Shown: one piece after another, positions 7,766 to 48,629 of the stretch | How the letters are laid out: the number at the start of each line of letters is the position of its first letter | Numbering within the stretch: position 1 is the stretch's first letter | Assembly (NCBI GenBank): GCA_929200535.1 | Contig: CAKMZV010000005.1 | Coordinates: 12,442-76,441, forward strand | Length of the DNA: 64,000 nucleotides | Reading direction: 5' to 3' | Source of the DNA: an uncultured Gammaproteobacteria bacterium | Lineage (GTDB): Bacteria > Pseudomonadota > Gammaproteobacteria > CAKMZV01 | Program-made: the position numbers and the translations under genes | Notes under the pieces: generated by a model | What the model was told of the DNA's origin: nothing | The model's input: the letters and a program-made list of their open reading frames with translations, nothing else | Databases searched by the model: none

Positions 7766-7805
7766 GAGACTTTTTCACTTGTCATATTTTTTGTGCAAAG
7801 GTCTC
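7766..7805. repeat. minimal family-A element or solo terminus (gagactttttcac...acttgtcatattttttgtgcaaaggtctc) between gatC and gatA
   Basis: Contains the 28-bp family-A terminus (reverse complement of gagacctttgcacaaaagatatgacaagt) paired with a short degenerate gagac half-site. Confidence 0.5.
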
Positions 7806-9325: not shown

Positions 9326-9328
9326 TTT

Positions 9329-22825: not shown

Positions 22826-22857
22826 CGACCTTTGCATCTCTTTTATGCAAAGGTCTC
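22826..22857. terminator. perfect palindromic hairpin (gacctttgcat-ctctttt-atgcaaaggtc) = minimal family-A element; likely bidirectional terminator between convergent genes
   Basis: 11-bp perfect stem with 7-nt loop, 11 nt after the hlyD stop. Sequence equals fused family-A termini. Confidence 0.5.
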
Positions 22858-29993: not shown

Positions 29994-30035
29994 ATTGGTT
30001 AAGGTTAATTTAGAAAATGAAAATTTATAAAAGTT

Positions 30036-30263
30036 GAGACCTTTGCACAAAAGATATGACAAGTAAAAAAGTAAAAAGTTGCCCTGATTTTTATCCGCAA
30101 GCGGTTCAAACGCTGTTACTCTATGGTTCGTAAACTCACCAAGAGTAAAAACGCTTTTTGTGTTGTGAAACTTGCAAAGACGGACGTATTAGCTTCATTT
30201 CACGCCTCAATCAGAACAATTTTTTATCTTTTTTCTTTTGCCATACTTTTATGCAAAGGTCTC
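30036..30263. mobile_element. MITE-like element, family A copy 2 (228 bp; TIR gagacctttgcacaaaag...cttttatgcaaaggtctc)
   Basis: Near-identical to 9329-9625 but with a single internal module. 18-bp perfect TIRs. No coding capacity beyond a ~25-codon ORF. Confidence 0.7.
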
Positions 30264-30372
30264 AAGTTATTTAATTAATTATACTTGCCCACGTAAGTAT
30301 TAGAGGTAGCTTTGTTTAAGAGAAGATTAATGCTTAATACACTACTATGCATAATATTTTCATCTCTTTAAT

Positions 30373-32710: not shown

Positions 32711-33709
32711 TTATCCGCCGAGTGATACCATTTGACGAAATTCAATATTTTTTCGATTTTCATTGAAAAAATGACGCTCTGGTTTTAGTTCCATCGATTT
32801 GACAATCATAGCCTCAAGTTCATTATCGCTGATGCCATCACGTATTGGTTGGCGTAAATCAATGGAATGTTCTTGCCCCAGACATAAGGCAAGCGTGCCT
32901 CTTGAGGTGAGACGTACGCGGTTGCAGGTGGCACAAAAATGTTGTGATACAGCGGAAATAACGCCGATACCGAGGTGTTTTTTTTCAGTACGGTAGTATT
33001 TTGCCGGTCCACCACCTTGGCGGCTAATGCTCGGAATTAGTTTTTCACCAAGGTGTTTTTCAACCCGCTCAAGCATTTCTTGCATTGGGATGTGTTTGTT
33101 CATTGAGTCAATCCCAGATTTTCCAATCGGCATTATTTCAATAAAGCGTAATTCAAGCCCGTATTTTGCGCTCCAATCAATGAGGTTTTCCATTTGGTCG
33201 TCATTAACTCCTCTCATCATTACGGTATTGATTTTGATTGGATCAAAGCCAATTTTTTTGGCTTGATAAATGCCTGTGAGAACTTTATTAAGGTTTCCAC
33301 CTCGGGTGATGCGATTAAATTCATCTGCGTTGAGCGTATCTAATGAAATATTCAGACGCCTAATGCCTGCTTGATAAAGGGGTTTTGCATAGCGTTCTAA
33401 GCGAGTGGCGTTAGTGGATAATGAGAGATCTAAATTGTCATTATCTTGGTTTATCATTGATACTATTTCGGTTAGATCTTTGCGTAAAAGAGGTTCGCCT
33501 CCAGTAAAGCGAATTCGCTTTACTCCAAGACGCACAAAAGCGGAGCAAATGCGAGAAATTTCTTCGGCAGTTAAATATTCAGTGTATTTGCCATTGGGGT
33601 GAACTCCTTTTGCTGGTGAGCAATAATCACAACGCAAATCACATTTATCCGTTACAGAAACGCGGATATAAGTAATTTCACGACCAAATGAATCAATTAG
33701 ACTTGTCAT
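32711..33709 (-). CDS. moaA: GTP 3',8-cyclase (radical SAM, molybdenum cofactor biosynthesis)
   Basis: CDLRCDYC radical-SAM cluster motif, C-terminal second cluster (CATCNRVRLTSRG), full-length MoaA similarity. Start codon lies inside a solo family-A repeat terminus. Confidence 0.9.
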   Translation of the reverse strand: MTSLIDSFGREITYIRVSVTDKCDLRCDYCSPAKGVHPNGKYTEYLTAEEISRICSAFVRLGVKRIRFTGGEPLLRKDLTEIVSMINQDNDNLDLSLSTNATRLERYAKPLYQAGIRRLNISLDTLNADEFNRITRGGNLNKVLTGIYQAKKIGFDPIKINTVMMRGVNDDQMENLIDWSAKYGLELRFIEIMPIGKSGIDSMNKHIPMQEMLERVEKHLGEKLIPSISRQGGGPAKYYRTEKKHLGIGVISAVSQHFCATCNRVRLTSRGTLALCLGQEHSIDLRQPIRDGISDNELEAMIVKSMELKPERHFFNENRKNIEFRQMVSLGG

Positions 33710-33730
33710 ATCTTTTGTGCAAAAGTCTCA
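33701..33730. repeat. solo family-A repeat terminus (acttgtcatatcttttgtgcaaaagtctca) overlapping the moaA start codon
   Basis: 28/30 match to the family-A terminus. The ATG ACA AGT of moaA is the atgacaagt of the repeat. Confidence 0.5.
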
Positions 33731-33889
33731 TTCTTTAATTTTATCGCTATGATTTAATTTATCAGCGTCTTTTTGACATTCTGTTAAATCAGCTTGGTAA
33801 GCATTCATATCAACTCCATCGGTATGAATAAAAGGAAGGGGGGCGATTACTACAGGCGGATAATACAAAAAGCAATAGAGTTATTATTT

Positions 33890-34252
33890 TTAATTTAATA
33901 CTTTATAGCCTCGGTTTTTTAAACATTTTTTAACAATACTGCTTTCTTCTTCATCATTCTTTAAGGCTCCTAAAGCTGTTCCTTCAGTAGCTCCGATGGC
34001 AGCGTGTGTGCCGACATTTTCTGGGTCAATTAAGGCACCAAGAGTACCTCGAAGTAATGCCCCAAAACCCGCACTTTTGGCAATGTTCTTACCGCTTTCT
34101 AACTGCTCTGCGACTTGTTCGCATTCAGCAAGATCAGTTTTATAAGCATCTATATCGATACCTTTAGTGTCGATAACTGGGCGACTGGCACAGGATGAAA
34201 GCAGTAGTGTTGACAGGGCAATTATCCAAAAAATGAAATTTTCTTTAACCAT
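33890..34252 (-). CDS. lipoprotein with glycine-zipper motif
   Basis: Lipobox LLSSC, then GFGALLRGTLGALIDP...GTHAAIGATEGTALGAL glycine-zipper-like segment. Overlaps the dsbA stop. Confidence 0.5.
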   Translation of the reverse strand: MVKENFIFWIIALSTLLLSSCASRPVIDTKGIDIDAYKTDLAECEQVAEQLESGKNIAKSAGFGALLRGTLGALIDPENVGTHAAIGATEGTALGALKNDEEESSIVKKCLKNRGYKVLN

Positions 34253-34871
34253 TTTTTAGTAAATAATTAATTATTTTGAAGATCTCATCTTTTCCCCCGG
34301 CGGTTTTTTCAGAAACACGATACTTCCCTTTAACAATAAAAGAGGGAACGCCTTCAATTTCAGATTTTTCAGTTAATTTTTTAGCTTGGGTCATTAAATT
34401 TTTAACCGCAAAACTATTGTAGGTTTTAGTAACGGTTTCTTTGTCAACTCCAACGCTTTTGAAAATATCGAAAATATCTTCTTGCGAGCGTAGTTGACCA
34501 GAGGAATAACGCTTAAAAATCTCCCCTTGAAGCTCATTGTGTTTTTTCAGTACGAATGCGACGTAGTAAAGTTGGACTGACCATTTGACACGTGGGGAGT
34601 AAAAAGCAGGTTGGTAGTGAAAATTAACTGTAGATTGTTTTGTTTTTAACCACTTTTCAACATATGGGTGAATATTTTTACAATGAGGACAACCATAGTA
34701 AAAAAACTCCACAACCTCAGGTTGCTTAGTCAGCGTGAACTCATTCTTCGGAGGGATTTTAAGATAATGTTTCCCTTCAATATACTTTTCTGCATTGCCT
34801 GACAAAGCAAGCAAAGAGAGAGTAGTTAACAAGAATGCTTTTGATAAAAGTGAAAGTGTTTTTGTTTTCAT
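34245..34871 (-). CDS. dsbA: thiol:disulfide interchange protein DsbA (copy 1)
   Basis: Signal peptide, CPHC active site (FFYYGCPHCKN), DsbA fold length (208 aa). Confidence 0.85.
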   Translation of the reverse strand: MKTKTLSLLSKAFLLTTLSLLALSGNAEKYIEGKHYLKIPPKNEFTLTKQPEVVEFFYYGCPHCKNIHPYVEKWLKTKQSTVNFHYQPAFYSPRVKWSVQLYYVAFVLKKHNELQGEIFKRYSSGQLRSQEDIFDIFKSVGVDKETVTKTYNSFAVKNLMTQAKKLTEKSEIEGVPSFIVKGKYRVSEKTAGGKDEIFKIINYLLKNG

Positions 34872-35027
34872 AATATTATTCTATAAGGTTGTTTTGAAAA
34901 AATTAAATAAAAGTGTAGCCTACAGTTCTCCATTATATCGATACCTTTGGTGTCGATAACTGGGCGACTGGCACAGGATGAAAGCAGTAGTGTTGACAGG
35001 GCAATTATCCAAAAAATGAAATTTTCT

Positions 35028-35654
35028 TTAACCATTTTTTAGTAAATAATTAATTATTTTGAAGATCTCATCTTTTCCCCCGGCGGTTTTTTCAGAAACA
35101 CGATACTTCCCTTTAACAATAAAAGAGGGAACGCCTTCAATTTCAGATTTTTCAGTTAATTTTTTAGCTTGGGTCATTAAATTTTTAACCGCAAAACTAT
35201 TGTAGGTTTTAGTAACGGTTTCTTTGTCAACTCCAACGCTTTTGAAAATATCGAAAATATCTTCTTGCGAGCGTAGTTGACCAGAGGAATAACGCTTAAA
35301 AATCTCCCCTTGAAGCTCATTGTGTTTTTTCAGTACGAATGCGACGTAGTAAAGTTGGACTGACCATTTGACACGTGGGGAGTAAAAAGCAGGTTGGTAG
35401 TGAAAATTAACTGTAGATTGTTTTGTTTTTAACCACTTTTCAACATATGGGTGAATATTTTTACAATGAGGACAACCATAGTAAAAAAACTCCACAACCT
35501 CAGGTTGCTTAGTCAGCGTGAACTCATTCTTCGGAGGGATTTTAAGATAATGTTTCCCTTCAATATACTTTTCTGCATTGCCTGACAAAGCAAGCAAAGA
35601 GAGAGTAGTTAACAAGAATGCTTTTGATAAAAGTGAAAGTGTTTTTGTTTTCAT
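35028..35654 (-). CDS. dsbA: thiol:disulfide interchange protein DsbA (copy 2, identical)
   Basis: 100% identical protein to copy 1, within the second 783-bp repeat unit. Confidence 0.85.
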   Translation of the reverse strand: MKTKTLSLLSKAFLLTTLSLLALSGNAEKYIEGKHYLKIPPKNEFTLTKQPEVVEFFYYGCPHCKNIHPYVEKWLKTKQSTVNFHYQPAFYSPRVKWSVQLYYVAFVLKKHNELQGEIFKRYSSGQLRSQEDIFDIFKSVGVDKETVTKTYNSFAVKNLMTQAKKLTEKSEIEGVPSFIVKGKYRVSEKTAGGKDEIFKIINYLLKNG

Positions 35655-35702: not shown

Positions 35703-36920
35703 CTACAGTTCTCCATAGGAATGAAGCCCAGATAAAAACATATTGACGCCAAGAAAGGCAAAGAGAGTAACGAATAGCCCAATAATAGCCCACCACGCCA
35801 TTAAGGTGCCTCGCCATCCTTTTGATATTCTTAGATGTAACCAAGCCGCATAGTTTAGCCACACAATCAATGCCCAAGTTTCTTTCGGATCCCAAGACCA
35901 ATACCCGCCCCAAGCCTCAGCCGCCCATAAGGCTCCGAGAATAGTGGCAATGGTAAAGGCAATAAAACCTAATGAAATTGCACGATAGGTTACCTCATCG
36001 ATAACCACTGTGGTGGGCATACGTTGTAACCAAAAAGATGGTTTTTCTTTTTGTTGGAAGTGATTGACGATTAACCATGCAATGGAGGTCATTGCGGCTA
36101 ATGCAAAAGCACCATAGCCGATAAAATTTGCTGGCACGTGAATTTTCATCCAATAGGAATTAAGGGCTGGAACTAAAGGCTGTATGTGGTGTGCGTTTCT
36201 TTCAAAGGCATACCACAGCAGGAAAGCAACCGCAAGCGAAACAATCAAGAGAGCAAAAAAGCCTAATTTGTAGTTTTGTAAGCGACGTTCTACTTGTAGA
36301 TAGATTAGCGTGGTAATCAAACAAAATAGAATAAAAACTTCATATAAATTACTGATTGGAATATGTCCGATTTGAGGGTCAATCAGGTAAGATTCGTGCC
36401 AACGAACTAATAATCCAGCAAAACCCATTACAACCCCTATCCATGCTAACTTACTGGATAATGCACCAATAAATTTATTGGTTGATAGAGTATGTGTTAA
36501 ATAGCCGATAGTTGAAAACACTAATAAAGCACTCATCCACATGACAGCAGATTGACTGGCAAAGAGATATTTAAGCCAAAAATTACTTTGTGCTAAATCA
36601 AGATTGTTTTGATATTGCCAAAGTGCAAAGAGGCTAATTACTCCAATAGCGATAAGGGCATATCTAAAAGCACGCCAATAAAAGCTGATGGAAAGCATCG
36701 TAATGACAGTAAAAATATAAATAACAACCTCAAAAACATCCATTGCTTGGCTATAGCGATAGCTAGCAAATAGAAAGAGAGTAGCCACCATCCATATTGA
36801 TGGAGAAAACAACGCTTCCCTAAGAAGGCGTTGGTCTATGGGTTCATTTATAGTTTGGTTTGCAGTAGTCACTTTATTATCATTAAAATAAGACGGCACA
36901 TTCATATTATAAGACGGCAC
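35703..36920 (-). CDS. ccsA: cytochrome c-type biogenesis protein CcsA/ResC (System II heme-handling protein)
   Basis: WWD/tryptophan-rich motif WAAEAWGGYWSWDPKETWALIVW, multiple TM helices. N-terminal ~100 aa poorly conserved, so the start is uncertain. Confidence 0.75.
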   Translation of the reverse strand: MPSYNMNVPSYFNDNKVTTANQTINEPIDQRLLREALFSPSIWMVATLFLFASYRYSQAMDVFEVVIYIFTVITMLSISFYWRAFRYALIAIGVISLFALWQYQNNLDLAQSNFWLKYLFASQSAVMWMSALLVFSTIGYLTHTLSTNKFIGALSSKLAWIGVVMGFAGLLVRWHESYLIDPQIGHIPISNLYEVFILFCLITTLIYLQVERRLQNYKLGFFALLIVSLAVAFLLWYAFERNAHHIQPLVPALNSYWMKIHVPANFIGYGAFALAAMTSIAWLIVNHFQQKEKPSFWLQRMPTTVVIDEVTYRAISLGFIAFTIATILGALWAAEAWGGYWSWDPKETWALIVWLNYAAWLHLRISKGWRGTLMAWWAIIGLFVTLFAFLGVNMFLSGLHSYGEL

Positions 36921-37031
36921 ATTAATATTAAATTATAAACTTTTAATGAATTGTCGTTGTAAAATTGTTTTTATTAGTTCAAATCATCTTTGGTATCGCC
37001 TATATTTTATTGCAAATCAAATTAAACAATT

Positions 37032-37514
37032 ATGAAAAAGTATTTTTTAATCGGTGTTCTTGCTGTTTTATTCTTGGTTGTATGGATAAATAAGGAATCC
37101 TTTTCTCTTGAAGTGAAAAATATGACTTTGGTTGATGTTTTTCAGAAAGAACACCAATTGCTCAACGCTTCTCCAGTATTGGTGAATATGTGGGCAACCG
37201 ATTGTGTTGCTTGTATTAAAGAGATGCCTAAACTCAAAGCGTTGCACAAAAAATACTCTGATAAAGGGTTCCGTGTAGTGGCAATTGCATTAGCTTATGA
37301 TAAATTAGAAGCAATTAAAATTTATGCAAAACAGAATTCTCTTAATTTTCCTGTTATTTATGATGAGGGAGAAAAAATTGCTCCTCTTTTTGGGAAAATT
37401 AGGGTAACGCCAACGAGTTTTTTATTAGACTCTAAAGGGAAGGTGGTAAGAAAAGCGATTGGTGAACCTGAATGGGATGATTGGGAGCAACAGATTAGGC
37501 AATTACTCTCTTAA
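37032..37514 (+). CDS. thioredoxin-fold thiol-disulfide oxidoreductase (TlpA/ResA/DsbE-like)
   Basis: Signal/anchor N-terminus, WATDCVAC CxxC motif, TlpA-like spacing. Divergently adjacent to ccsA. Confidence 0.75.
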   Translation: MKKYFLIGVLAVLFLVVWINKESFSLEVKNMTLVDVFQKEHQLLNASPVLVNMWATDCVACIKEMPKLKALHKKYSDKGFRVVAIALAYDKLEAIKIYAKQNSLNFPVIYDEGEKIAPLFGKIRVTPTSFLLDSKGKVVRKAIGEPEWDDWEQQIRQLLS

Positions 37515-37526
37515 TTTTTTGCTCTT

Positions 37527-38411
37527 GTGTCTCTCCCTTGTGTTTTGAGTATAGGAGGTAATGACCCCACAGGTGCAGCTGGTTTGGCAATGGATGTGCG
37601 AGTTGGGCAGCGTTTGAATGTTCGAGTATTACCGATATTAAGTTGTTTTACAGTGCAGGATGGTAATACGGTTAGTCGAGTAGACTGGCTTTCTAAAGAA
37701 CAGTTTGAAGCCCAACTTGCGTCTCTTTTAAATAGTGGTAGGGAGTTGCCTCGAGTGATTAAAATTGGCTTGTTGTTAAGCCCTGATTTAATCGATAGTG
37801 TGGTTGATTTTTATCATACTATGACTCAAAAAAGTAAGGGTGAAATTTTTGTTATTTTTGATCCTATCTTAACCAATGGACAAGGAAGTCCCTTTTTTTC
37901 GAGTGAGGAAAATTTAACTGCGATTATAAATAAAATTAGGCATCGACTTTTGCCTATTTGTTCAGTCCTTGCACCAAATGAACAAGAATTTAAGCTTTTA
38001 ATAAAAGAAGATAATACCACCATGGAAAATTTGAACGACCAGGTTTCTGATTTAGTTCAAATAATGGCAACGTACCAAAATTTTATACCAATGTTAATTC
38101 TTAGTGGAGGGCATAGCGTAGATGAGGATTGTTATATAGTCAATCGGCTATTTTATCGAGAAGACAATCAGATACAACAACAAAAAATTAAACAAACCCG
38201 CTATCCAGGGGGATATCGTGGTACTGGTTGTGCTTTAAGCACTGCCACAGCTTGCGTTATGGCGAAACACCTGAATAATAATTCAAATACCCTTGAGTCA
38301 ACGACACAAAAAAAAATTATTCAAGAGGGCTTTGCTTTTGTTCACCATGCCGTGGAACAGACCCATAAAAAAACAAAATCGACTGATGAAAATCAGTTTT
38401 TAAATTTTTAA
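37527..38411 (+). CDS. thiD: hydroxymethylpyrimidine/phosphomethylpyrimidine kinase (ThiD/PdxK ribokinase-like)
   Basis: VLSIGGNDPTGAAGLAMDV N-terminal motif and C-terminal GTGCALSTA anion-hole motif. Confidence 0.75.
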   Translation: MSLPCVLSIGGNDPTGAAGLAMDVRVGQRLNVRVLPILSCFTVQDGNTVSRVDWLSKEQFEAQLASLLNSGRELPRVIKIGLLLSPDLIDSVVDFYHTMTQKSKGEIFVIFDPILTNGQGSPFFSSEENLTAIINKIRHRLLPICSVLAPNEQEFKLLIKEDNTTMENLNDQVSDLVQIMATYQNFIPMLILSGGHSVDEDCYIVNRLFYREDNQIQQQKIKQTRYPGGYRGTGCALSTATACVMAKHLNNNSNTLESTTQKKIIQEGFAFVHHAVEQTHKKTKSTDENQFLNF

Positions 38412-38414
38412 AGA

Positions 38415-40235
38415 GTGAAAAATCTATTTATGATAAATAATCGACTGCGAAATAAGCTGTCTTATCTCAAGTGTACTATTCTTTCAATAATGAAAAGTCC
38501 GCTTCAGACGCTGGTATTTCTTAAAAATATCAGGGGTGAGTCAGTATATGAAAATAAAAAACATATTGAATTGGCCACAGATTGGTTACTAAAGGCTCAA
38601 CAAGTCGGAGATGATCAAGGGTATTCAAGAGGGTTTTATTTGTACAAAGGTGGATGGGATAAAAGTTATATTGAAACAACTGGGTATATTATTCCAACGC
38701 TATTGAAGGTGAGCCGTACTTACAATAATAAAAAATATTATGACTCAGCTTTAAATGCTGGTCAGTGGTTGCTTTCTAAGCAAACTAAACAAGGTGGTTT
38801 TTGTGGTATTGATGCTTCGGATGAATTAGTCTTTGATACAGGGCAGGTGCTTTACGGGTTAGTTGCACTGTATGAGTTAGAAGAGAGTAGTCAAGATTTC
38901 AAATTGCAATATGAAACGGCGATAGAGAAGGCGGCAAGTTGGTTATGTGACGTTCAGGATGATGATGGTAGTTGGACTAAATATGGTTATGAGGGTATTG
39001 CTCACAGCTATTATTCCCGAGTTTCTTCGATTTTGTATCGTGTTGGAGAATTGATGAACAATCAAAATTATAAAGATTGTGCAGAAAAACATATTAATTG
39101 GGTCATTAGCCAGCAAAATGAGGTGGGTTTTTTTCAAAAATTACAATTTACTGCACAAGAAAAAAATAGTGTTTTACATTCGATTATTTATGTTTTAGAA
39201 GGATTATACGATTACTATTTAATGACAAAAAATGAGGTTGTTTTGCAATCAATGTTAAAGAATGCAGAGCAACTTAAACGCATTAACTTGGAAAGAGATT
39301 TATTGCTTGGTTCTCAATATGATGATAACTTCAATTGTGTCAATTCGGAAAGATGTATGACAGGATTAGCTCAATGGGCTGGATTAGCATTTAAGCTGCA
39401 TCAATTGACTAAAGATGAGGGCTATCTGCATTGTGCACGCAAAACAATATTTTATTTGAAGTCCAAACAATTTACAGAAGGGAAAGTGCGTGGAAGTTTA
39501 GCAGGATCAGTGCCTTTTTGGGGATTTTATGCTAAATTTCGGGCAATTAATTGGGGTGTTAAATTTTTTATAGATGCTCTTTTAGAGCATCAGAAAATGC
39601 CACTTTCATTAATTGAAGAAAGTGGTTTATGGATAGGAGAGTGTTTTAAGTTTAGCAATATGGTTGATGACAGATTAACAAGTACCTCGTATGAATATAT
39701 TAGTATTCTACAAAGCTATGTCGCTAATTCAGCAAATGTTTTAGATCTTGGATGCGGTCAAGGCAGGCATTTAGATTACTTTAGGGAGCAATTTCAAGAG
39801 AAAAACATTTTGGGGGTAGATCCTTACTATTATGATGGAAAAAAGGTGTTAGAAGGTGATGCGTATTGTATTAAAACAGATATAAAATTCGACTTAATTT
39901 ATACCATTGAAGCATTACAACATGTAAAATATCTTGATGTTGCCTTGGCTGAGATTCATAAAAAATTAGATGATAAAGGATACTTTATTATTTGTGATCG
40001 AAACCCTAATAGTTTGCTTGGCTACTTGAAGCCTATCCAAGAATGGCGTGGCAAATGGATGTACCCATTTGATAGCCCATTTCGGGAAAAATGGTACGGT
40101 ATTAAAAAATGGAAAAAAATTCTAAATGATAATGGTTTCTTAGTAGAAGATATAAAGACTTTTACAGGAAAAAATGGTCGTTTTGGTTGGTTCAGCAGAT
40201 ATAGTGTTATTGTCGCAAGAAAAAATAATGGTTAA
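38415..40235 (+). CDS. two-domain protein: N-terminal (alpha/alpha)-toroid-like repeat domain + C-terminal class I SAM-dependent methyltransferase
   Basis: N-terminal ~400 aa show recurring A..WL...Q..DG.W / GGW / GGF elements as in terpenoid cyclase, prenyltransferase or C5-epimerase toroids. C-terminal VLDLGCGQGRHLDYF motif I and downstream motif II of class I methyltransferases. Confidence 0.6.
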   Translation: MKNLFMINNRLRNKLSYLKCTILSIMKSPLQTLVFLKNIRGESVYENKKHIELATDWLLKAQQVGDDQGYSRGFYLYKGGWDKSYIETTGYIIPTLLKVSRTYNNKKYYDSALNAGQWLLSKQTKQGGFCGIDASDELVFDTGQVLYGLVALYELEESSQDFKLQYETAIEKAASWLCDVQDDDGSWTKYGYEGIAHSYYSRVSSILYRVGELMNNQNYKDCAEKHINWVISQQNEVGFFQKLQFTAQEKNSVLHSIIYVLEGLYDYYLMTKNEVVLQSMLKNAEQLKRINLERDLLLGSQYDDNFNCVNSERCMTGLAQWAGLAFKLHQLTKDEGYLHCARKTIFYLKSKQFTEGKVRGSLAGSVPFWGFYAKFRAINWGVKFFIDALLEHQKMPLSLIEESGLWIGECFKFSNMVDDRLTSTSYEYISILQSYVANSANVLDLGCGQGRHLDYFREQFQEKNILGVDPYYYDGKKVLEGDAYCIKTDIKFDLIYTIEALQHVKYLDVALAEIHKKLDDKGYFIICDRNPNSLLGYLKPIQEWRGKWMYPFDSPFREKWYGIKKWKKILNDNGFLVEDIKTFTGKNGRFGWFSRYSVIVARKNNG

Positions 40236-40730
40236 AATGGTTAAGCGTGAATTTAGGTTACGATGTTCTAAACCATACTAATATACATTTATGGAATAAT
40301 CAACACACTTTTTTATAATCTGGCTTTAAATATATTTGCTTGATAAGTACTTTAAATGCTAATTTCTTCATCTTCTAACTCTCTTTTTTTTCAATACATT
40401 CATTCAAGAATCTAAAGTTGGATTTGTTTTTCTTTTCTGTGACGATGAACGATAAGAAAGACCGCATCTGACCTTAATTTGCTTTTGCTAACTTTCTGTT
40501 TTCTCATAAGCCACTGATTTTATTTAAACTCCAATCGGATTGTTCTGAGGTTTTTAAGATTTTACTAACTAATTAAATTGAGTGTAGGTTAGAATGGATA
40601 TAGAAATTGAGGGTTATCGAGTATGTGGTTAACAATCTTAAGAAGTTATAAAAATTTACAGTAAATTTGCGAAATATACTTCAAAAATAGACTTGAGATT
40701 AAAATTATCTGCCAAATTCGCCATTAAATT

Positions 40731-41512
40731 TTGAATTTATTCTTTGCTATACAAAGTACAACTATATATATGAAAAAAATAACACAAATATATGCAAATA
40801 TCTCGAGACAAATATTATATTTTTCATCTAAATATTTTGGATATTATTTATATAGATGTATTAAAAAAATCATTCTGCCAATGTGGAAGGGAGATGCACA
40901 TCTTAGTTATGTCATCCATTATCCTCTTTTTATACAAGGGAATACAATTAACCAAATTGAACATTTTAATTTTTATGAAGGATTGTTTGAGAGTCGTTCA
41001 GTTACATCTTTAGATAAGTTTTTTAATTGTTTTCCAGTATTTAACAAAGCTGTTTTTATAGGTGTTAATATATGGAACATATTGTCGATTTTTTCAAGAT
41101 AGGTTTTTATCAGCAGATTTATACGAACCTCATCCTAAAACATACAATGATTTATTAGAGAATATAGTTTTAAATGGGGCTGAAAAAAACAGGCGATACA
41201 AATATCTGCTCACCCTGAAAAAGCAATCCTTTATGAGGTACCAAATTCATTTGGCTCTAATTCATTAATTTCAGGATATCCTAAGTCAAACAGTTCAATT
41301 ACAGTAGATACCATACCAATTACCCATATTGATAATAATGCTAATTTGTATTTTATTGATGCAGAAGGATTAGATGTTAAGATAGTTGAGCAGTTGATTC
41401 CACATACATCCAAAGAAACTATTTTTATTTTTGAAGTAGATACACATGATAACTTTCTTGAATTTGATTCTCTTATCAAAAAATATCAAAATCAAGATTG
41501 GTTTTATTTATA
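40731..41512 (+). pseudogene. decayed FkbM-family methyltransferase gene (frameshifted fragments)
   Basis: Three frames carry FkbM-like pieces, including the C-terminal FIDAEGLDVKIVEQLIPHTSKETIFIFEVDTH (compare LKIDIEGAE..VL.G). No intact ORF over 123 aa. Confidence 0.45.
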
Positions 41513-41655
41513 GGATAATGGAGAAAAGAAATATTTTTATGAATAATAAAAATCTAAATTAAATAATGCAACGAAAGTTCCAATCTCAAAATAAAGATAG
41601 ACAAAATCTGTTGAAAGTGCGATAAGGATTGTAAAAAAAAGCTTTACAATCTGAA

Positions 41656-41827
41656 GAGACCATCTCTATTAAATATGACCCGTGTAAAAAAGCGAGAAAT
41701 TCTTCCTAATTTTATCAGCAAGCTATTTAAACAATCATAAATTTGCCAAGAATAAAAACACTTTTTGTTGTCTCACTGGAGGGATTTTTTAATTTTTTTC
41801 TATTATCTCATATTTAATAGAGGTAGC
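41656..41827. mobile_element. MITE-like element, family B copy 2
   Basis: Same termini (ctctattaaatatg...catatttaatagaggtagc) and subterminal module as 3778-3936. Left end begins gagacc as in family A. Internal segment ccaagaataaaaacactttttgttgt resembles the family-A internal module. Confidence 0.6.
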
Positions 41828-41967
41828 TTATAATATCTTAGAAGGCTACGAAGATTACTTATAAAGTACGACATTTAAAAATTGACAAATACACCCTTAC
41901 CCTCAAAACCTCCAAGAAAGAAATTTCATCACAAAATGGTTCATGATTTGAGCTATAAAGTATCGCT

Positions 41968-43470
41968 ATGAATAAATGTTTAGATGCTGTTATTTTAGCG
42001 GCGGGATTTGGTTCAAGGTTACGACCGATGACACTTGAAAAACCAAAAACTTTAATTGAGGTTGGTGGTATTCCTATGCTGGAGTATATCTTAAATTCCT
42101 TAGCTAAAAATGGTGTTCAAAATGTCTTTATTGTTGTTGGCTATCAAAAAGATAAAATTATTCAGTTTTGTAAGGATAATTTTTCAAATCTACATTTTAG
42201 ATTTATTGAAAATCCCATTTATTTTGAAACTAATAATATGTATAGTCTGTATCTCGCTAAGGACTATTTAATTAACGATTTCTATTTGATGAATGCGGAT
42301 TTAGTTTTCGATAATGAAGTTATTACTCGGCTTTCAAAAACAGATAAAACTAGCATTGCTGTTAAAAAAGATGTTTATCTTGAGGAGTCAATGAAAGTAA
42401 AAGTTAATGAGGGGAAAATAGCCAACATATCTAAATCAATCAGCTCGAAGGAAGCGTATGGTGTAAGTATTGATGTTTATAAAATTATTAAAAAAGATAT
42501 TCCTATTATCAAATCAGAATTAGATGAAATCATTGATGTTGATAAAAATTTACACCAATGGACAGAAGTAATGTTGGATAATTTATTTACAAAGAGAGCG
42601 ATTGATGCAATCCCCTGTGATGTTTCTTATTTAAAATGGTTTGAGATTGATAGTTACGAAGACCTATTAAATGCAGAAACTTTATTTAATGAAAACTTAT
42701 GTTTGCTCAAAAGAAAAAAAATATTTTTTGTTGATGGAGATGGCACTTTAATCCTTGGAGATAAGATTATTAATGGAGCTAATGATTTTTTAAATGTACT
42801 GAAACAAAAAAACAAACTTACATTTTTATGTACTAATAACTCTTCAAAAACAAAACATTCTCATTTGAAAAAATTCAATTCTTTAAATCTAAATATAGAC
42901 AATGTTTTAGATTCTTTAGATTGTTCGTTGGATTATTTAAAATCAAAAAAAATAATGAATGTTGGGCTTTTATCAACAAAAGAGGTAAAAGAATATGTTT
43001 TGGAAAGAGGTTTTAAAGTTGATTTGAAAAATCCCCAAGTTGCATTATTGACTTATGATAATTCCTTAACTTATAAGAAATTAATCTCGTTTATAAATTT
43101 GGTAAGAAAAGGTATTCCTTATTATGCGACTCATGCTGATATTTTATGTCCAACTCAAAATGGTCAAATTCCAGATATAGGTTGCTTTATTGATATGATT
43201 AAAAGTTCTACTGGAATTTATCCAGAAAAAGTTTTTGGAAAACCATCAATAGATTTGATAAAATCAACTTTAGATAAGTTGTCGTTAAAGGAATCCGATG
43301 CTGTTGTTATTGGTGATAGACTTTACACAGATATTGCAATGTGTAAGGATAATCAACTAACGTCAGTTTTAGTTTTAAGCGGGGAAACGAATAGAAGTAT
43401 GTATGAAGGGTCAAACATAAAAGCAGATATTATTCTTGATTCTGTAAAGGATTTAATTAAGTATTTCTGA
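41968..43470 (+). CDS. bifunctional LicC-like CTP:phospho-alcohol cytidylyltransferase / HAD-IIA-family hydrolase
   Basis: N-terminus AVILAAGFGSRLRPMT...ETNNMYSLYL strongly resembles LicC-type nucleotidyltransferases. C-terminal ~250 aa has HAD motif I FVDGDGTL plus motifs II-IV (GKP, GDRLYTDI) of subfamily IIA. Confidence 0.75.
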   Translation: MNKCLDAVILAAGFGSRLRPMTLEKPKTLIEVGGIPMLEYILNSLAKNGVQNVFIVVGYQKDKIIQFCKDNFSNLHFRFIENPIYFETNNMYSLYLAKDYLINDFYLMNADLVFDNEVITRLSKTDKTSIAVKKDVYLEESMKVKVNEGKIANISKSISSKEAYGVSIDVYKIIKKDIPIIKSELDEIIDVDKNLHQWTEVMLDNLFTKRAIDAIPCDVSYLKWFEIDSYEDLLNAETLFNENLCLLKRKKIFFVDGDGTLILGDKIINGANDFLNVLKQKNKLTFLCTNNSSKTKHSHLKKFNSLNLNIDNVLDSLDCSLDYLKSKKIMNVGLLSTKEVKEYVLERGFKVDLKNPQVALLTYDNSLTYKKLISFINLVRKGIPYYATHADILCPTQNGQIPDIGCFIDMIKSSTGIYPEKVFGKPSIDLIKSTLDKLSLKESDAVVIGDRLYTDIAMCKDNQLTSVLVLSGETNRSMYEGSNIKADIILDSVKDLIKYF

Positions 43471-43684
43471 ACGTTTTTGGATTGCCAGAGGGGGGAACAA
43501 GTGGGTTTTGTTTACTTATTAAGTGAAACGATTATGCAACTTTTCTGTAGGATTCATTTTCGGTATCGCAAAGTATAAGAGCTTTACGTTTTTGACACAA
43601 AATAATTTAAGTTATAATGTATAGGTACGCTAAAACAATGTTAGCTATATTACATATTATTAGCTATATCATATATTTCAAAAA

Positions 43685-44422
43685 TTGAATACCCCTCTCC
43701 CAAAACCTCAAAGAAGGAAATTTCGTCAAGAAACAGTTATTCACAGCTATATTGTTCGCCCCTTGGCACAAGAGTTAGTTTTGTGGATTTGGAATACTAA
43801 CATTACCCCAAATCAATTAACATTTAGTCGCTTAATTCTTGGTATTATCTATCTCTACTTATTTACGCTTGGTACTGCAAGTGGTTTTATTATAGGCATT
43901 GTTCTTTTTCAAGTGGCTGAAATTATTGACCATGCTGACGGTATGTTGGCTCGCCTCAAAAATCAAACAAGTAAGTTGGGTCAGTGCTACGAATACATCA
44001 TTGATGAATTGTTTGCAATAGAAAGTGGACTTTTAGGTTTAGCAATAGCTTATGGAGCTTATCAATATGGAGCAAATATACTATTTATTTATCTTGCCGT
44101 TGCCGTTCTCTATGTTCATTATTTTCACTGGTATATTAAGTTGAAAATTAATCTCACTGAGAAAGATACTAATAACAAAATGTCTATGGATCACGATGGA
44201 GAGACATTATTACGGATAATTGGTGTGCCGTTTAAACAATCTTTGTTTAACGCTTTAAGAACGATAAATTGTTGGCGAAATCAGTTGTATTTTGTCGGCA
44301 TTATTGGTTTGCTTTGTGGGGCAGAGTTAACACTAATAGCGACTTTTATAGTGTTCCTTTTGCTTAATTTGCTCCGTACAGCTATACAATTAAAAGAAGG
44401 CTATACAAGGCATAAGGAATAG
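43685..44422 (+). CDS. CDP-alcohol phosphatidyltransferase family protein
   Basis: DHADGMLARL...G...YIIDE matches D-x2-DG-x2-AR...G-x3-D-x3-D. 5-6 TM helices. Confidence 0.75.
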   Translation: MNTPLPKPQRRKFRQETVIHSYIVRPLAQELVLWIWNTNITPNQLTFSRLILGIIYLYLFTLGTASGFIIGIVLFQVAEIIDHADGMLARLKNQTSKLGQCYEYIIDELFAIESGLLGLAIAYGAYQYGANILFIYLAVAVLYVHYFHWYIKLKINLTEKDTNNKMSMDHDGETLLRIIGVPFKQSLFNALRTINCWRNQLYFVGIIGLLCGAELTLIATFIVFLLLNLLRTAIQLKEGYTRHKE

Positions 44423-44704
44423 AAGAGTCTGTAATTATGTGTGGTTGGTTATCGCTATTCACTGTGAGCCGTGAAAGAAGGCGAAAATCTATCCCCAATT
44501 TTATTAATAAGCATTTCAAACGCTGTTACTTTAAAAATCGAAAAAAATTAGGCTGCCCTAAAGCAATTTCTTATTATATTCGTACAAATAAAAGTTTACG
44601 TAATTTAGTTATCAGGTTGGTGAAAAATCATAACAAGAATTTTAGGAGTATTGAACGCGTTCTATTAGACTTGTTTTTTAAAGAACAACACTCAGGAGAA
44701 AAAT

Positions 44705-45463
44705 TTGAATTCTAAGTTGATTGATGCTCTTTTTAAAGAAAGAGTTTATTATAGTGTGCGTGATAAGGTTTATAACAAAGAGGGTAGTTACCTAAAAGAT
44801 TTTGTTTTAGATACTGAAATTATGCAGGATATAGGTATTCCACCTAAAATAATTGATGTTCCAGTTGCTCTTAGAGAGCTTACGGTTATTAAAAAAACGT
44901 TTGAAGAATTTCATCTTCCTATTTTTTTTATGTTTGGTACTTGCTTAGGGGCCATAAGAGAAAAGGGATTTATCAAACATGATAAAGATATTGATATTGG
45001 CACTTATGGGGAAAATATAGATAAGATTATTTTAGCGATTCTAAAGCTCAGAGATGAGTGTCAATTTAAGGTTACTAAATTAGCCGTAGATGATACAGTA
45101 ATTAGTCTTTTAAAAGATGCTGTAGTTATTGATATTCATCTTTTTCATAATTGTTCTTCTTATTGGAGTAGTTGTAATAATTTTTTCCAAATACCCTATC
45201 ATCATTTATCTGAGCTAACCGAAATTGATTTTTTGGGAATTAAAATGAATGTGCCTAATTACGTTGAGGATTATTTAGAATATCAATATGGTAGTAACTG
45301 GCAGATACCAGTAGAAGGTTTTTATTCCTACCCTAATAGAGCTAAGCGTATATCTAATAAAATCTTTGCTCCTATTCTGGGAAGTAAAGTAGCGGGTTTT
45401 ATTTCTAACATAGTTTCGTGGTTTGTCAAAAAATTACAAAATTTTCGTCGAAAGTTTCGTTAA
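44705..45463 (+). CDS. licD: LicD-family phosphotransferase (phosphocholine/phospho-alcohol transferase family)
   Basis: LicD/FKTN nucleotidyltransferase-fold motifs (FGTCLGAIRE, KHDKDIDIG). Confidence 0.75.
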   Translation: MNSKLIDALFKERVYYSVRDKVYNKEGSYLKDFVLDTEIMQDIGIPPKIIDVPVALRELTVIKKTFEEFHLPIFFMFGTCLGAIREKGFIKHDKDIDIGTYGENIDKIILAILKLRDECQFKVTKLAVDDTVISLLKDAVVIDIHLFHNCSSYWSSCNNFFQIPYHHLSELTEIDFLGIKMNVPNYVEDYLEYQYGSNWQIPVEGFYSYPNRAKRISNKIFAPILGSKVAGFISNIVSWFVKKLQNFRRKFR

Positions 45464-45535
45464 ATGAGAGGTGTTTGGTATAGTAGCCATTAACCTATTT
45501 CGCTATGGCTAATACTTGATATTTAAATAATCTTT

Positions 45536-46813
45536 ATGTTGGGATATTCCGTCATACTCAATTCATCAGTCACTTTTGTTGTCTTATGTTTAAATTTTGG
45601 GCTCAAAATTTATTTAGCTCAAGAGTTTTCACCAGAAAATCTGATTATTTACTACACCATACTGGATATTTTTTCAATAATCACTCGTTTCTTTGATGGC
45701 TATAAGGATGCCATTATTACAACTTATAGCAAAACAAAACATAAGCTTAAAATGCTCAAAACCTGTTGGGTATTTTTTATGTGGATGGTTTTAATTATTT
45801 CGTTTATAGTCATTCCATTAGTGTTAAATTTTTACTTAGTGCAAAAAGTGGAGAATTTAGATATTAAATGGTGGTCCCTTTCTTTGTTGTTTATGTTGAT
45901 GAGTTTTGTGGCTTATTATTTACGTATGTTATTATTGCATAGAGATTATAAAATGATCTCGGTTATTGATGCCTTAAAAGTGGTTCTGTTTATTTTAAGT
46001 GTTGTTATCTTATATCATTTTTTAAAACAAGAAGCAACTTACAAGACGCTAATTTGGGCGAGTATTTACGCAAATATATTGGCATTACTCTATCTTATTT
46101 ATTATCATAATCGAGTTTTTTCTCGTTATCAAATTGTCCAAAATATTAGCTTGTGTTTTGCTAAATTTCAAGATGATAGTAACCGAGCTTTTATTCAAAA
46201 AACTATTTTAGCGAGTGCAAATTCTTTTACTTATGGGTTATTGCTGTTTGCCCCAGTTTTTGTGATGTTAAATGCAAATGATATTGAGCAGTTATCGAAT
46301 TTTCAAGTGGTTGCAAGAGCGATTTTTTTTGCACTTATTGCTGTTTTTTCATTTCCGCTTGGGCGTTTTATGTTTCCTGAATTTGCTTCAAAATTAGAAA
46401 AAAAAGAATATGCTTCTTTGCTAAATATACGTAAAAAATTTATTAAGCTACTGATGCTTTTTGGTTTTTTTGCAATTGCATTGTGTTGGCTTTTTTCTAA
46501 ACAGTTTGTGCTTTTGCTTTTCCCTATGGAATATGGAAATAGCTATATAATGCTTAATATTTTAATCGTTTCCTTACCTTTCATACTGTACCAAAACTTT
46601 TCTGAGTCAATTATTAAATCTCAAGGTTTATATACAAGGAGCCTACTGATTAAAGGATTTGGAGTAATGAGTTTTATAGGTAGTTACTTAGTGTTAACTC
46701 ACTTGGCTATTGAGCTGGCTTCAATCTACGCTTTGATGATGGGTTTTTTCGGCGTTTTTGTGTCTTCGTTAGGTTTTGAGAGATTAGAAATAAGAAGGTG
46801 GGGAACGATATGA
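45536..46813 (+). CDS. polysaccharide flippase (Wzx-like, MOP superfamily)
   Basis: 425 aa, ~12 TM helices, typical hydrophobic architecture. Sits in a glycan gene context. Confidence 0.65.
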   Translation: MLGYSVILNSSVTFVVLCLNFGLKIYLAQEFSPENLIIYYTILDIFSIITRFFDGYKDAIITTYSKTKHKLKMLKTCWVFFMWMVLIISFIVIPLVLNFYLVQKVENLDIKWWSLSLLFMLMSFVAYYLRMLLLHRDYKMISVIDALKVVLFILSVVILYHFLKQEATYKTLIWASIYANILALLYLIYYHNRVFSRYQIVQNISLCFAKFQDDSNRAFIQKTILASANSFTYGLLLFAPVFVMLNANDIEQLSNFQVVARAIFFALIAVFSFPLGRFMFPEFASKLEKKEYASLLNIRKKFIKLLMLFGFFAIALCWLFSKQFVLLLFPMEYGNSYIMLNILIVSLPFILYQNFSESIIKSQGLYTRSLLIKGFGVMSFIGSYLVLTHLAIELASIYALMMGFFGVFVSSLGFERLEIRRWGTI

Positions 46814-47967
46814 TGATATGGTTTTTAACGCGTTCTTTAAGCCCCTATCAATCCACTGGAGGTGGGCAAATTAGGCTTGCACAAGCCAATCATTTAGAGA
46901 AATTAGGTTGGGAGGTGAAAATAATTATGCCTAATTATCAAGATGAAAAAATCAATATTATAGGCAATGTTACTCAAATTCCGCACACGAAAAATTATCA
47001 CTTATCTAAAGCGTTTCAACATCTTGGAATCTATGAGGATTATTTGGACGTTTGGGTTAAGAAAAGTTTTTTGTATCTAAAAGATAAAATTAAAAAGCAA
47101 GATATTGTATTTGCAACCAGTGGTGGTGAATTGGCAATGGTTAAACTTGGGTATTTGCTTAAACAAGAAGTAGGTTGTAAGTTGGTAATTAATTTTCATG
47201 ATCCTATTAGTTATGGGGATATGAATGGTTTAAGAATAAATAATAAGTTTCATTTTAGTAGAGAGAGGGTGCAGCAAAAGTATGTTAAAGAGGCTGACTT
47301 TATAATTACTTCATCGCAATATTATGCCGAATTCTTAAAACAAAAGTTCCCGATATTGGTTAATCAAATTGAAAACAATTACTTTGGTTACATTAAGAAA
47401 TTTCCCCTTCCAAAAAAATTAGCAGGGCAGTCTAAAAAATTACGGATTGCTTATGCGGGTTTAATGAGTAAAGCCCAAGCACCAGAATTACTTTATCAGG
47501 CTTGGCAAACATTAAGAGATTTTGATATAGAAATTTATTTTATTGGGGATTCGCAAAATTATAAACCACTAAACCATATTTCAAAGACAAAAGGCTGTCA
47601 TTTGGTACCTTTAATGCCTTATGAGCAATTTTTAAGCTTTATGGTGAAAAATATTGATGTCGGATTTGTTAGTCTATCCAATGACTATTATGGGGCTTGT
47701 GTGCCTTCTAAAATTTATGAATATATTAATTTAGGACTCCCTATGTTAGCTGCTTTACCTGCTGGGGATGGTATGGATATTATTAATGAAAATAATTATG
47801 GTGTCGCTTGTGATTACAAAAATACGGCAGCCTTAAAAACAAGTCTGCAAAAATTTAAAGATCAGAGGTTTTTGAATAGTATTCAACAGTCTGTATTACA
47901 AGATAGAGAAATATGGGCAATGGACTCTCGAATTTTACAGTTAGATAAGGTGCTTAAAAAGTTATAA
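46798..47967 (+). CDS. glycosyltransferase, GT-B fold (group 1 / GT4-like)
   Basis: Two Rossmann-like halves, C-terminal E-x7-E-like region. Overlaps the flippase stop. Confidence 0.65.
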   Translation: MGNDMMIWFLTRSLSPYQSTGGGQIRLAQANHLEKLGWEVKIIMPNYQDEKINIIGNVTQIPHTKNYHLSKAFQHLGIYEDYLDVWVKKSFLYLKDKIKKQDIVFATSGGELAMVKLGYLLKQEVGCKLVINFHDPISYGDMNGLRINNKFHFSRERVQQKYVKEADFIITSSQYYAEFLKQKFPILVNQIENNYFGYIKKFPLPKKLAGQSKKLRIAYAGLMSKAQAPELLYQAWQTLRDFDIEIYFIGDSQNYKPLNHISKTKGCHLVPLMPYEQFLSFMVKNIDVGFVSLSNDYYGACVPSKIYEYINLGLPMLAALPAGDGMDIINENNYGVACDYKNTAALKTSLQKFKDQRFLNSIQQSVLQDREIWAMDSRILQLDKVLKKL

Positions 47968-48002: not shown

Positions 48003-48629
48003 ATGCTGCTTACAAGTATGAAGTATCGTTCTTTGTACCTTATTTATAATGTTGAAGAGAATAATTTTCAGATTGACTGGCAGGTTTTTCTTCGAGTTTT
48101 GAAGCGTGGGGTTTATTGTGTGCAGTATCGCTCTAAAGGGAGTTCTTTTGAGTTTGATTATCGTTATGCGAGAAAGGTGCAGAAGATTTGTTGCCGTTCA
48201 CGTACACCTTTCGTGATTAATGATAGTCTTAAATTAGCTCGTCGAGTGCGTGCAGATGGCATACATATTGGTCAAGAAGATGGGAAATTATCTTTTATTA
48301 AAAAGCAATTAAATTGGCGGGCAAGAGGGTTTAAGGGTCGTTTACCGATAGTGGGTGTAAGTTGTTATAATCACCTTGCTCTTGCTATCAAAGGAAAAAA
48401 GGAGGGGGCAGATTATCTTGCTTTTGGTGCATTATTCCCCTCCCCAACGAAGCCTGATAAGGAAACGGTGTCTTTTCAAGTAGTGAAAAAAGCAAACAAG
48501 CTTGGTCTTCCTACGGTGGTTATTGGAGGTATTAACTCATTGAATCTTCGTTATGCAAAGAAAACTCATGCAAATGCTTATGCAATGATTAGCGGTATTA
48601 ATGGGATAGATGATAAAATTAATTTTTGA
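48003..48629 (+). CDS. thiE: thiamine-phosphate synthase
   Basis: Colinear with E. coli ThiE (..RSK....INDSL.LA....ADGIHIGQED..., GVSCYN, ADYLAFGALFPSPTKP, PTVVIGGIN). Confidence 0.8.
   Translation: MLLTSMKYRSLYLIYNVEENNFQIDWQVFLRVLKRGVYCVQYRSKGSSFEFDYRYARKVQKICCRSRTPFVINDSLKLARRVRADGIHIGQEDGKLSFIKKQLNWRARGFKGRLPIVGVSCYNHLALAIKGKKEGADYLAFGALFPSPTKPDKETVSFQVVKKANKLGLPTVVIGGINSLNLRYAKKTHANAYAMISGINGIDDKINF

Follow-up and report, generated by a model that had tools for sequence, protein, structure and literature searches.

In the Lic (LicA-D) and Pnt (PntC with a LicD-like protein) pathways, a cytidylyltransferase of the LicC fold activates a head group, and an enzyme of the LicD family transfers it to a surface glycan (PMC6697681). 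Pneumococci of serotypes 15 and 23 have Gtp1, Gtp2, Gtp3 and WchX, which follow a reductase, cytidylyltransferase, glycerol-2-phosphotransferase and phosphotransferase logic (PMC1391919). TagD and TagF of the wall teichoic acid pathway bring glycerol phosphate from cytidine diphosphate (CDP)-glycerol to a lipid-linked glycan. For phosphonates, a Fom1-type fusion of a cytidylyltransferase with a phosphoenolpyruvate (PEP) mutase (Ppm) makes cytidine monophosphate (CMP)-2-hydroxyethylphosphonate (CMP-HEP), according to the account of Cho et al. 2017 given in PMC6697681, and Campylobacter has been reported to carry HEP clusters, which are uncharacterised (PMC8942020). Here we analyse a 64-kb window of DNA from an uncultured gammaproteobacterium (contig CAKMZV010000005.1; all coordinates refer to this whole stretch), in which thiD (37527-38411) and thiE (48003-48629) are held apart by 9.5 kb, with all genes on the + strand. 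We think it rather likely that this island is a horizontally acquired, functional cassette for tailoring a surface glycoconjugate, in which a phosphonate donor module has been replaced by a fusion protein of the CDP-glycerol type. Its gene content, collinearity, module replacement, asnB remnant, interrupted synteny and purifying selection are directly supported by the comparisons given below.

Six large open reading frames (ORFs) lie between thiD and thiE, and five of them form a core that is collinear with two other loci, one from Campylobacter (L105; GCA_012979055.1, LIXD01000004) and one from a metagenome contig (L107). These two loci share one gene order: a toroid-methyltransferase, a Fom1-like CTP_transf_like-PEP_mutase fusion, a thiamine pyrophosphate (TPP) enzyme (Ppd), an iron-dependent alcohol dehydrogenase (Fe-ADH) and a CDP-alcohol transferase, followed by an AsnB-like amidotransferase, LicD, a membrane protein of 407-428 aa and a glycosyltransferase. 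The orthologues of the window are 62 and 58% identical to those of L107 and L105, respectively, for the toroid-methyltransferase, 62 and 53% for the CDP-alcohol transferase (the Campylobacter relatives at 53% include WP_009651372.1), 40 and 34% for LicD, 44 and 38% for the Wzx-like membrane protein, and 49 and 46% for the GT4 glycosyltransferase. The fusions of L105 and L107 carry the PEP mutase motif EDKxxxxxNS, and we predict from their sequences that the PEP mutase, Ppd and PhpC-like ADH of these loci supply 2-hydroxyethylphosphonate, with CMP-2-hydroxyethylphosphonate as the donor. The combination that marks a phosphonate cluster, an EDKxxxxxNS PEP mutase together with Ppd, is found in both loci but not in the window, where neither tblastn with the cassette genes nor Pfam revealed any trace of Ppm, Ppd or ADH. 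In both L105 and L107 the HEP-type cassette stands inside a larger polysaccharide locus of ~32% GC beside groEL, which also encodes a UDP-GlcNAc 2-epimerase, a UDP-ManNAc dehydrogenase-like protein, a polysaccharide deacetylase, an acyltransferase_3 protein and extra GT4 enzymes, and whose product is apparently uncharacterised. The window island has none of the UDP-ManNAc(A) genes that flank the cassette in these loci, and none of their additional glycosyltransferases.

The slot of the former phosphonate module is now taken by 1.7 kb of decayed DNA, which includes an FkbM-like pseudogene, and by a LicC-like/HAD-IIA fusion, and an intact AsnB is missing as well. What is left of the latter lies in a 92-aa ORF (44437-44715), where the last ~60 codons of an asnB-like gene (44533-44715, + strand) are fused to the left half of a miniature inverted-repeat transposable element (MITE; 44446-44545, 75-76% identity to its family) at a deletion scar. 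This 3' remnant matches residues 561-645 of the L107 AsnB with 45% identity (E 1.6e-14 and 2e-19 by tblastn and BLASTP); a sequence-only reading made earlier of the same stretch had contained neither the remnant nor the parent cassette. This relic proves that the window island and the L105/L107 cassette share their ancestry. Thus, because the orthologues are collinear, the phosphonate genes are gone and the asnB remnant has stayed behind, the island is a truncated and donor-swapped derivative of a HEP-type cassette. Every part comes from a family already known, and the scheme of activating a head group with a cytidylyl moiety and then transferring it with a LicD-type enzyme is the one used in the Lic and Pnt pathways. 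To our knowledge, the recurring five-gene core has not been described, and the comparison provides sequence evidence that, as a new feature, this core may be served by either a phosphonate module or a LicC-HAD-IIA module.

The assignments of the core proteins were made by Pfam and NCBIfam scans judged against the model cut-offs, and these uphold the domains that the sequence-only reading had named in the LicC-HAD fusion, the CDP-alcohol transferase, the LicD protein and the toroid-methyltransferase. The last of these (38415-40235, + strand, 606 aa, with its true start probably at 38430-38490) joins a squalene-hopene-cyclase-like alpha/alpha barrel (SQHop_cyclase_C, 3.9e-10) to a class I S-adenosylmethionine methyltransferase (Methyltransf_23, 1e-16); a profile search of the PDB with it turns up class I methyltransferases of a generic kind and a weak match to squalene-hopene cyclase, but nothing else. 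The CDP-alcohol phosphotransferase (43685-44422, + strand, 245 aa) is an integral membrane protein (CDP-OH_P_transf, PF01066, 3e-13, 50.8 bits against a cut-off of 22), whose motif reads DHADGMLAR-x8-G-x3-E-x3-D. The form of its subfamily is DxxDGxx(A/S)Rx8Gx3Ex3D, as opposed to Dx2DGx2ARx8Gx3Dx3D on transmembrane helices 2-3 in the family at large, and since all of the subfamily has Glu as the third acidic residue, this is most readily read as a subfamily variant and not as decay. The subfamily also has a unique conserved N-terminus, KPxRRKFRQETVIHSY, and its only solved relative is AF2299 (PDB, 9e-7), of the IPCT-DIPPS group that handles soluble CDP-alcohols.

The LicD-family phosphotransferase (44705-45463, + strand, 252 aa; Pfam LicD, PF04991, 38.9 bits, cut-off 22.6) shows the N-terminal nucleotidyltransferase-fold signature of its family, GxxLGxxR...D-x-D, and its motif GTCLGAIREKGFIKHDKDIDIG aligns with the catalytic region of FKRP. 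The Wzx-like (MOP-type) polytopic membrane protein (45536-46813, + strand, 425 aa) is a putative flippase with 10-12 hydrophobic segments. Its Polysacc_synt match is weak (E 0.0026, 17.7 bits, under the cut-off of 28.2) and its profile found no sequence relative in the PDB; hhalign matches it to a profile built from four established Wzx proteins at 70.7% probability (E 3.8e-5, 303 columns). The GT4-type (GT-B) glycosyltransferase (46798-47967, + strand, 389 aa) could be confirmed, though on borderline Pfam scores: 28.2 bits for Glyco_transf_4 (cut-off 28.5) and 26.5 bits for Glycos_transf_1 (cut-off 26.4). Its orthologues in L107 and L105 are annotated in the same way.

The proposed donor module is a protein of 500 aa (41968-43470, + strand), for which we propose the role of CDP-glycerol synthase. 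Its N-domain matches NTP_transf_3 (1e-12) and NTP_transferase (7e-12), with LicC as the best solved relative (1jyk, 7e-19, residues 6-239); the signature GxGSRx8PK is intact, in agreement with the class signature GxG(T/S)Rx4-8PK, and GFGSRLRPMTLEKPK is invariant in the family. The C-domain is of the HAD-IIA type (TIGR01460, 110.2 bits against a cut-off of 100.15; 1vjr, NagD/pNPPase, 1.7e-42), with the motifs DGDGT, TNNS, GKP and GDRLYTD intact and with D256, D258, G259, T260, N290, N291, S292, K425, G449, D450, T454 and D455 invariant in the family. Its best solved relatives are of the NagD/p-nitrophenylphosphatase-type HAD-IIA subfamily, which also includes glycerol-3-phosphate phosphatases. 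The fusion family, of ~500 aa, is well conserved and gave at least 550 matches (best non-self 54% identity; mean column identity 60% in a sample of 24 sequences). Its members come from Bacillus cytotoxicus, Clostridium, candidate-phyla bacteria, archaea, Planctomycetes and others, and everywhere their sole annotation is 'HAD-IIA family hydrolase'.

Among E. coli genomes, blastn located a full-length fusion homologue (40% protein identity over 488 aa) in the O-antigen clusters of serogroups O33, where it is the first gene after galF, and O130, where it lies between gnd and ugd. Each cluster encodes a 'CDP-glycerol glycerophosphotransferase family protein', and the fusion is the only candidate gene for donor synthesis in these Wzx-dependent glycan loci. 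According to titles cited in PMC7685785, the O33 O-antigen has glycerol 2-phosphate and the O130 O-antigen has glycerol phosphate. Among 12 other loci, which include the flagellin-glycosylation islands of Bacillus cytotoxicus and Clostridium lundense, seven have a TagF-like Glyphos_transf gene near the fusion or its split form. The fusion, a GpsA-like reductase and a CDP-alcohol transferase stand in a row in L017, and a Bacteroides-like capsule locus (L055/L056) has a split version composed of an NTP-transferase, a HAD-IIA protein, an Fe-ADH_2 reductase and a TagF-like protein. A metagenome scan queried with HAD-domain peptides only returned mostly stand-alone housekeeping HAD-IIA proteins, with a fusion or split form in 7 of 80 loci. 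Because the homologues of the fusion occur in the O33 and O130 glycerol-phosphate clusters, beside TagF-like genes and sometimes triose reductases, the donor is probably CDP-glycerol and not CDP-choline. For the narrower role of a CDP-2-glycerol synthase the support is correlative, namely O33 membership, TagF-like partners and adjacent reductases.

Some of these loci show further features of their own. In E. coli O130 (L103, 13712-13933) the fusion lies outside the galF-gnd block and beside an IS200 remnant, which suggests that it was added separately to the O-antigen cluster. In Bacillus cytotoxicus (L015/L016) and Clostridium lundense (L018) it stands between flagellin genes together with GT2/TPR and TagF-like genes, and this suggests that the flagellin glycans of these Firmicutes are modified by glycerol phosphate. 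In L017 (14369-16950), a toroid protein that stands by itself (429 aa) and a fusion of a nitroreductase with a methyltransferase adjoin the operon of LicC-HAD-IIA fusion, GpsA-like and CDP-alcohol transferase genes; the toroid, methyltransferase and CDP-alcohol transferase functions are thus found together in unfused form as well.

Compared with the described systems, the island shares parts with several of them. O33 and O130 use a TagF-like (Glyphos_transf) phosphotransferase in complete O-unit loci with wzy and several glycosyltransferases, whereas the window island has LicD and a CDP-alcohol phosphotransferase, one glycosyltransferase and no wzy. The split L055/L056 set looks like the unfused version of the fusion, and its composition equals that of the Gtp1-3/WchX system; in the window, two of the activities are fused, Gtp3 being a putative HAD-IIA counterpart, and the island has no reductase. 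With the Lic and Pnt pathways the window shares the LicC-fold and LicD-family pair, but it lacks the LicA kinase, the LicB permease and Ppm, has an extra HAD-IIA domain and a CDP-alcohol phosphotransferase, and its head group is probably glycerol phosphate. IPCT/DIPPS proteins of the AF2299 type likewise pair a nucleotidyltransferase making soluble CDP-alcohols with a small six-helix CDP-alcohol phosphotransferase; in the window these are separate proteins, the transferase has Glu for the third Asp and a distinct N-terminus, and the setting is a glycan locus and not a solute pathway. From TagD and TagF the island differs in the cytidylyltransferase fold (TagD is of the CTP_transf_like type), in the transferase families and in its diderm host.

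What follows on the alcohol, on the task of the HAD domain, on the acceptors and on flipping is inferred from these comparisons. The HAD-IIA domain would supply glycerol phosphate, probably glycerol-2-phosphate, which the LicC-like domain would join to cytidine triphosphate (CTP), yielding CDP-glycerol. LicD, the membrane CDP-alcohol phosphotransferase or both may then pass the glycerol phosphate on, with release of CMP, to an acceptor on the cytoplasmic face that is either a sugar or a lipid. GT4 would add a hexose and partly build the acceptor, the Wzx-like protein would flip or export the lipid-linked product, and the toroid-methyltransferase may modify the product further. The island encodes no priming glycosyl-phosphate transferase, polymerase or ligase, and its target is therefore most likely a glycan or lipid that other loci produce. 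A more general version, which we hold to be doubtful, is that the five-gene core is a donor-agnostic machine that builds a teichoic-acid-like glycoconjugate in diderms from any CMP-activated hydroxyalkyl phosph(on)ate: the membrane transferase would put the first unit on a lipid carrier, GT4 would glycosylate its free hydroxyl, LicD would add a further unit and Wzx would export the product. Under this version, the genome would document a natural change of donor, from the C-P compound CMP-2-hydroxyethylphosphonate to the C-O-P compound CDP-glycerol, and the same transferases would have to take phosphonate and phosphate donors alike.

How the island arrived was assessed by synteny and composition. 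In a search of 5.8 billion proteins, ThiD had two non-trivial relatives only, with 43-46% identity, and on both of their contigs (L019 and L020) redoxin, thiD and thiE are contiguous, thiE overlapping thiD or starting 15 nt after it. The same redoxin gene (AhpC-TSA/TlpA-like, 37032-37514, + strand) precedes thiD in the window and serves as the left synteny anchor outside the island. A scan of genome contigs with ThiE reached distant phyla only and was uninformative for synteny. As both ThiD relatives keep the three genes directly adjacent and without the island, we regard it, chiefly on the ground of synteny, as having been inserted into a redoxin-thiD-thiE order that is conserved. The nearest relatives of the island are found in unrelated lineages, the core in Campylobacter and an unassigned metagenome contig and the fusion in many phyla.

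Horizontal acquisition had earlier been read from base composition, and here the outcome is divided. The ~9.5 kb stretch is indeed AT-richer, with 30.8% GC against 37.6% for the remainder of the window, and per-gene GC differs (Mann-Whitney p = 0.0013) while GC at third codon positions is marginal (p = 0.057). Most of this deficit comes from the first and second codon positions and from non-coding DNA, and the synonymous codon bias (Karlin-type) of the island genes is not atypical against the rest of the window (p = 0.80). Among the usual marks of a genomic island we find interrupted synteny, but no atypical codon usage, mobility genes or flanking repeats; searches with Pfam and Rfam found neither an integrase nor a tRNA at the island. 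A 9-mer, TTAAATTTT, present at both junctions, was considered as a target-site duplication and rejected, as its 15 occurrences in the window are not significant against 9.5 expected. The acquisition is not recent, because host MITEs have colonised the island.

One of these MITEs is the ~178 bp copy at 41657-41834, which matches 3777-3942 and has the terminal inverted repeat GGCTACCTCTATTAAATATGA, in line with what had been noticed in the sequence; a further partial copy of this family lies at 24798-24833. The decayed FkbM methyltransferase gene that had been claimed is present as a frameshifted pseudogene at ~40770-41510 (+ strand). In an exhaustive phmmer search, its longest frame piece found the intact 300-aa protein P0204, to which the three-frame stitched translation aligns over 224 aa with 36% identity (E 5e-36). 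The label is borderline, since P0204 itself stays below the FkbM/Methyltransf_21 (PF05050) cut-off (E 9.5e-4, 19.8 bits against 22.7), and the pseudogene had no match in Pfam, in the PDB, or against the canonical FkbM of L022 by tblastn and BLASTP. The P0204 locus (L108) is an unrelated polysaccharide cluster.

The large genes of the island, on the other hand, are maintained. The island is present in the window contig and in five near-identical assemblies from related samples (99.8% identity). Single-nucleotide polymorphisms (SNPs) in the island among these strain variants comprise 19 synonymous and 12 non-synonymous changes, with no stop codon and no frameshift; the toroid-methyltransferase alone has 12 and 5, and the genes for the CDP-alcohol transferase and LicD are invariant. 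The strain variants thus show that the island is under purifying selection, and it is real and probably functional.

Several points speak against our interpretation. The locus has been eroding, as witnessed by its pseudogene, its two MITE insertions and its asnB remnant. The island provides no priming transferase, polymerase or ligase of its own that would point to the acceptor. Composition is weak evidence of foreign origin, because synonymous codon usage is native-like and native core genes (mreCD, PBP2, rodA, mltB, tmk and holB, at 9.6-17.5 kb, 28-36% GC) are equally AT-rich, and both relatives used for synteny are so distant that loss there is formally possible. The partners of the fusion in the window, LicD and the CDP-alcohol transferase, go elsewhere with a phosphonate donor and are not its usual TagF-like partner, and we assume that donor and transferases are compatible. 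The link of the fusion to pneumococcal Gtp2 and Gtp3 is a presumed one, drawn from their CDP-2-glycerol biochemistry, which was reportedly worked out by Wang and colleagues in 2010.

The same observations can be read in other ways. That the cassette is ancestral here and was lost in the two relatives, with no horizontal acquisition, would agree with the native-like codon usage, the settled MITEs, the missing integrase, tRNA and significant flanking repeat, and the distance of these relatives; yet redoxin-thiD-thiE stands contiguous in two independent relatives, ThiD-ThiE fusions exist (P0125), the core occurs at 53-62% identity in a 32% GC locus of Campylobacter, which belongs to a different phylum, and the LicC-HAD-IIA fusion is patchy across phyla, so that we consider this quite unlikely. 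We give equally little credence to the view that the island is a decaying relic, with its remaining genes heading to pseudogenisation and no product, even though an FkbM-like pseudogene, the asnB remnant, a complete and a partial MITE copy, 1.7 kb of DNA without coding capacity and the lack of a primer transferase and polymerase all invite it. The six large ORFs are intact in six of six assemblies, the SNPs lean to the synonymous side in the counts given above, and a complete donor gene fills the slot of the lost module.

As for the product, the sequence-only reading had suggested, as an example, a phosphocholine-type group, which would mean a Lic-type decoration in which the fusion is a CTP:phosphocholine cytidylyltransferase and LicD places phosphocholine on lipopolysaccharide or another glycan. 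The solved relative LicC, plasmid homologues of the N-domain annotated as 'phosphocholine cytidylyltransferase family' and a weak match of the LicD protein to the Mf1 cholinephosphotransferase model (59 bits, cut-off 225) are consistent with this. We nevertheless regard it as highly improbable: as had been said before, Pfam and NCBIfam reveal no choline kinase or permease domain of the licA/licB type in the island, the Lic pathway has no use for a HAD phosphatase, and all genomic associations of the fusion, with O33 and O130, TagF-like CDP-glycerol transferases and triose reductases, are with glycerol. Furthermore, the aromatic (Trp) positions of LicC, which we take to form its aromatic box, align with the family-invariant Ser141 and Asp169, with Lys143 nearby. 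The wider claim, decoration of a surface glycan or lipid by some CDP-activated phospho-alcohol, fits the domain content and stands without its choline-type head group. Another small phospho-alcohol or phospho-acid donor (CDP-ribitol, CDP-inositol, CDP-serine, CDP-threonine or CDP-glycerate), with the HAD domain trimming a bisphosphate precursor, is unlikely. The NCBIfam IPCT/DIPPS model gives 85 bits with the N-domain of the fusion and 33 bits with the CDP-alcohol transferase, scores that both stay far under its cut-off, AF2299 belongs to that family, a HAD enzyme and a nucleotidyltransferase are combined in heptose and KDN pathways, and the fusion is just 40% identical to the E. coli proteins; but neither the island nor the homologous loci that we examined encode an inositol-phosphate synthase, a ribulose-phosphate reductase or another precursor gene, and the partner transferases and reductases point to glycerol. 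A membrane-lipid head group or a compatible solute in place of a glycan decoration could arise if CDP-glycerol reacted with diacylglycerol, or with glycerol-3-phosphate to give diglycerol-phosphate phosphate, which the HAD domain would dephosphorylate as for diglycerol phosphate (DGP) and di-myo-inositol phosphate (DIP) in Archaeoglobus. A cytidylyltransferase, a CDP-alcohol phosphotransferase and a phosphatase make up the DIP/DGP set, and L017 has its fusion, GpsA-like and CDP-alcohol transferase genes consecutively. The usual reading of a phosphonate cluster that has a CDP-alcohol transferase is that of a phosphonolipid locus (PMC6697681). This outcome is also improbable in our view, as the transferase is always embedded with LicD, Wzx-like and GT4 genes, in L105 and L107 inside larger polysaccharide loci, and as the fusions of O33 and O130 occur without a CDP-alcohol transferase, which separates the HAD domain from the product of that enzyme.

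The flanks and the remainder of the window add several observations. ThiD, a hydroxymethylpyrimidine (HMP)/HMP-P kinase (Pfam Phos_pyr_kin 7e-30), is divergent, with 93 bits for TIGR00097 against a cut-off of 205, and among the strain variants thiD has 8-9 non-synonymous and 3 synonymous SNPs; the bias and the low score suggest that selection on thiD, beside the insertion, is relaxed or altered. ThiE, the thiamine-phosphate synthase (TMP-TENI 6e-38; TIGR00693 135.5 bits), has 2 synonymous and 1 non-synonymous SNP, and adk and purD follow it. An Rfam scan of the whole window found no RNA family and hence no TPP riboswitch, including upstream of thiD (36900-37530), and a promoter/terminator scan of 36.9-49.4 kb gave fewer promoter-like sites than shuffles and nothing decisive. 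A second MITE-like family of ~210 bp with the terminal repeat TGAGACCTTTGCACAAAAGATATGACAAG occupies intergenic positions at 9327-9602 and 30034-30279, and its termini recur at 7769-7814, 22830-22884 and 33701-33738; the core inside it resembles the MITE family of the island. The family copy at 3777-3942 adjoins a gene for a RhuM-family 'virulence protein' (3866-4645, Pfam 1e-80) between priA and gatB, which may be another small insertion. A perfect tandem duplication with a 783-bp period (34151-34450 and 34934-35233) yields two identical 208-aa DsbA genes (34245-34871 and 35028-35654); the gene is single-copy in four sister assemblies (L004-L007), which indicates strain variation or an assembly artefact.

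If the replacement of the donor module is read correctly, the island is a natural case in which a phosphonate donor module has been exchanged for a phosphodiester one while the transferase scaffold stayed the same. It then has a bearing on the late steps in which phosphonoglycans and phosphonolipids are assembled, of which little is known, and on how promiscuous LicD and CDP-alcohol transferases are towards their donors. The island is also a clean example of a locus recognisable by synteny and homology despite native-looking codon usage. Finally, the fusion family, with members in flagellin-glycosylation islands of Firmicutes, O-antigen clusters of E. coli, a Bacteroides-like capsule locus, candidate-phyla bacteria and archaea, gains a testable function in place of its generic hydrolase annotation: the synthesis of CDP-glycerol, probably CDP-2-glycerol.

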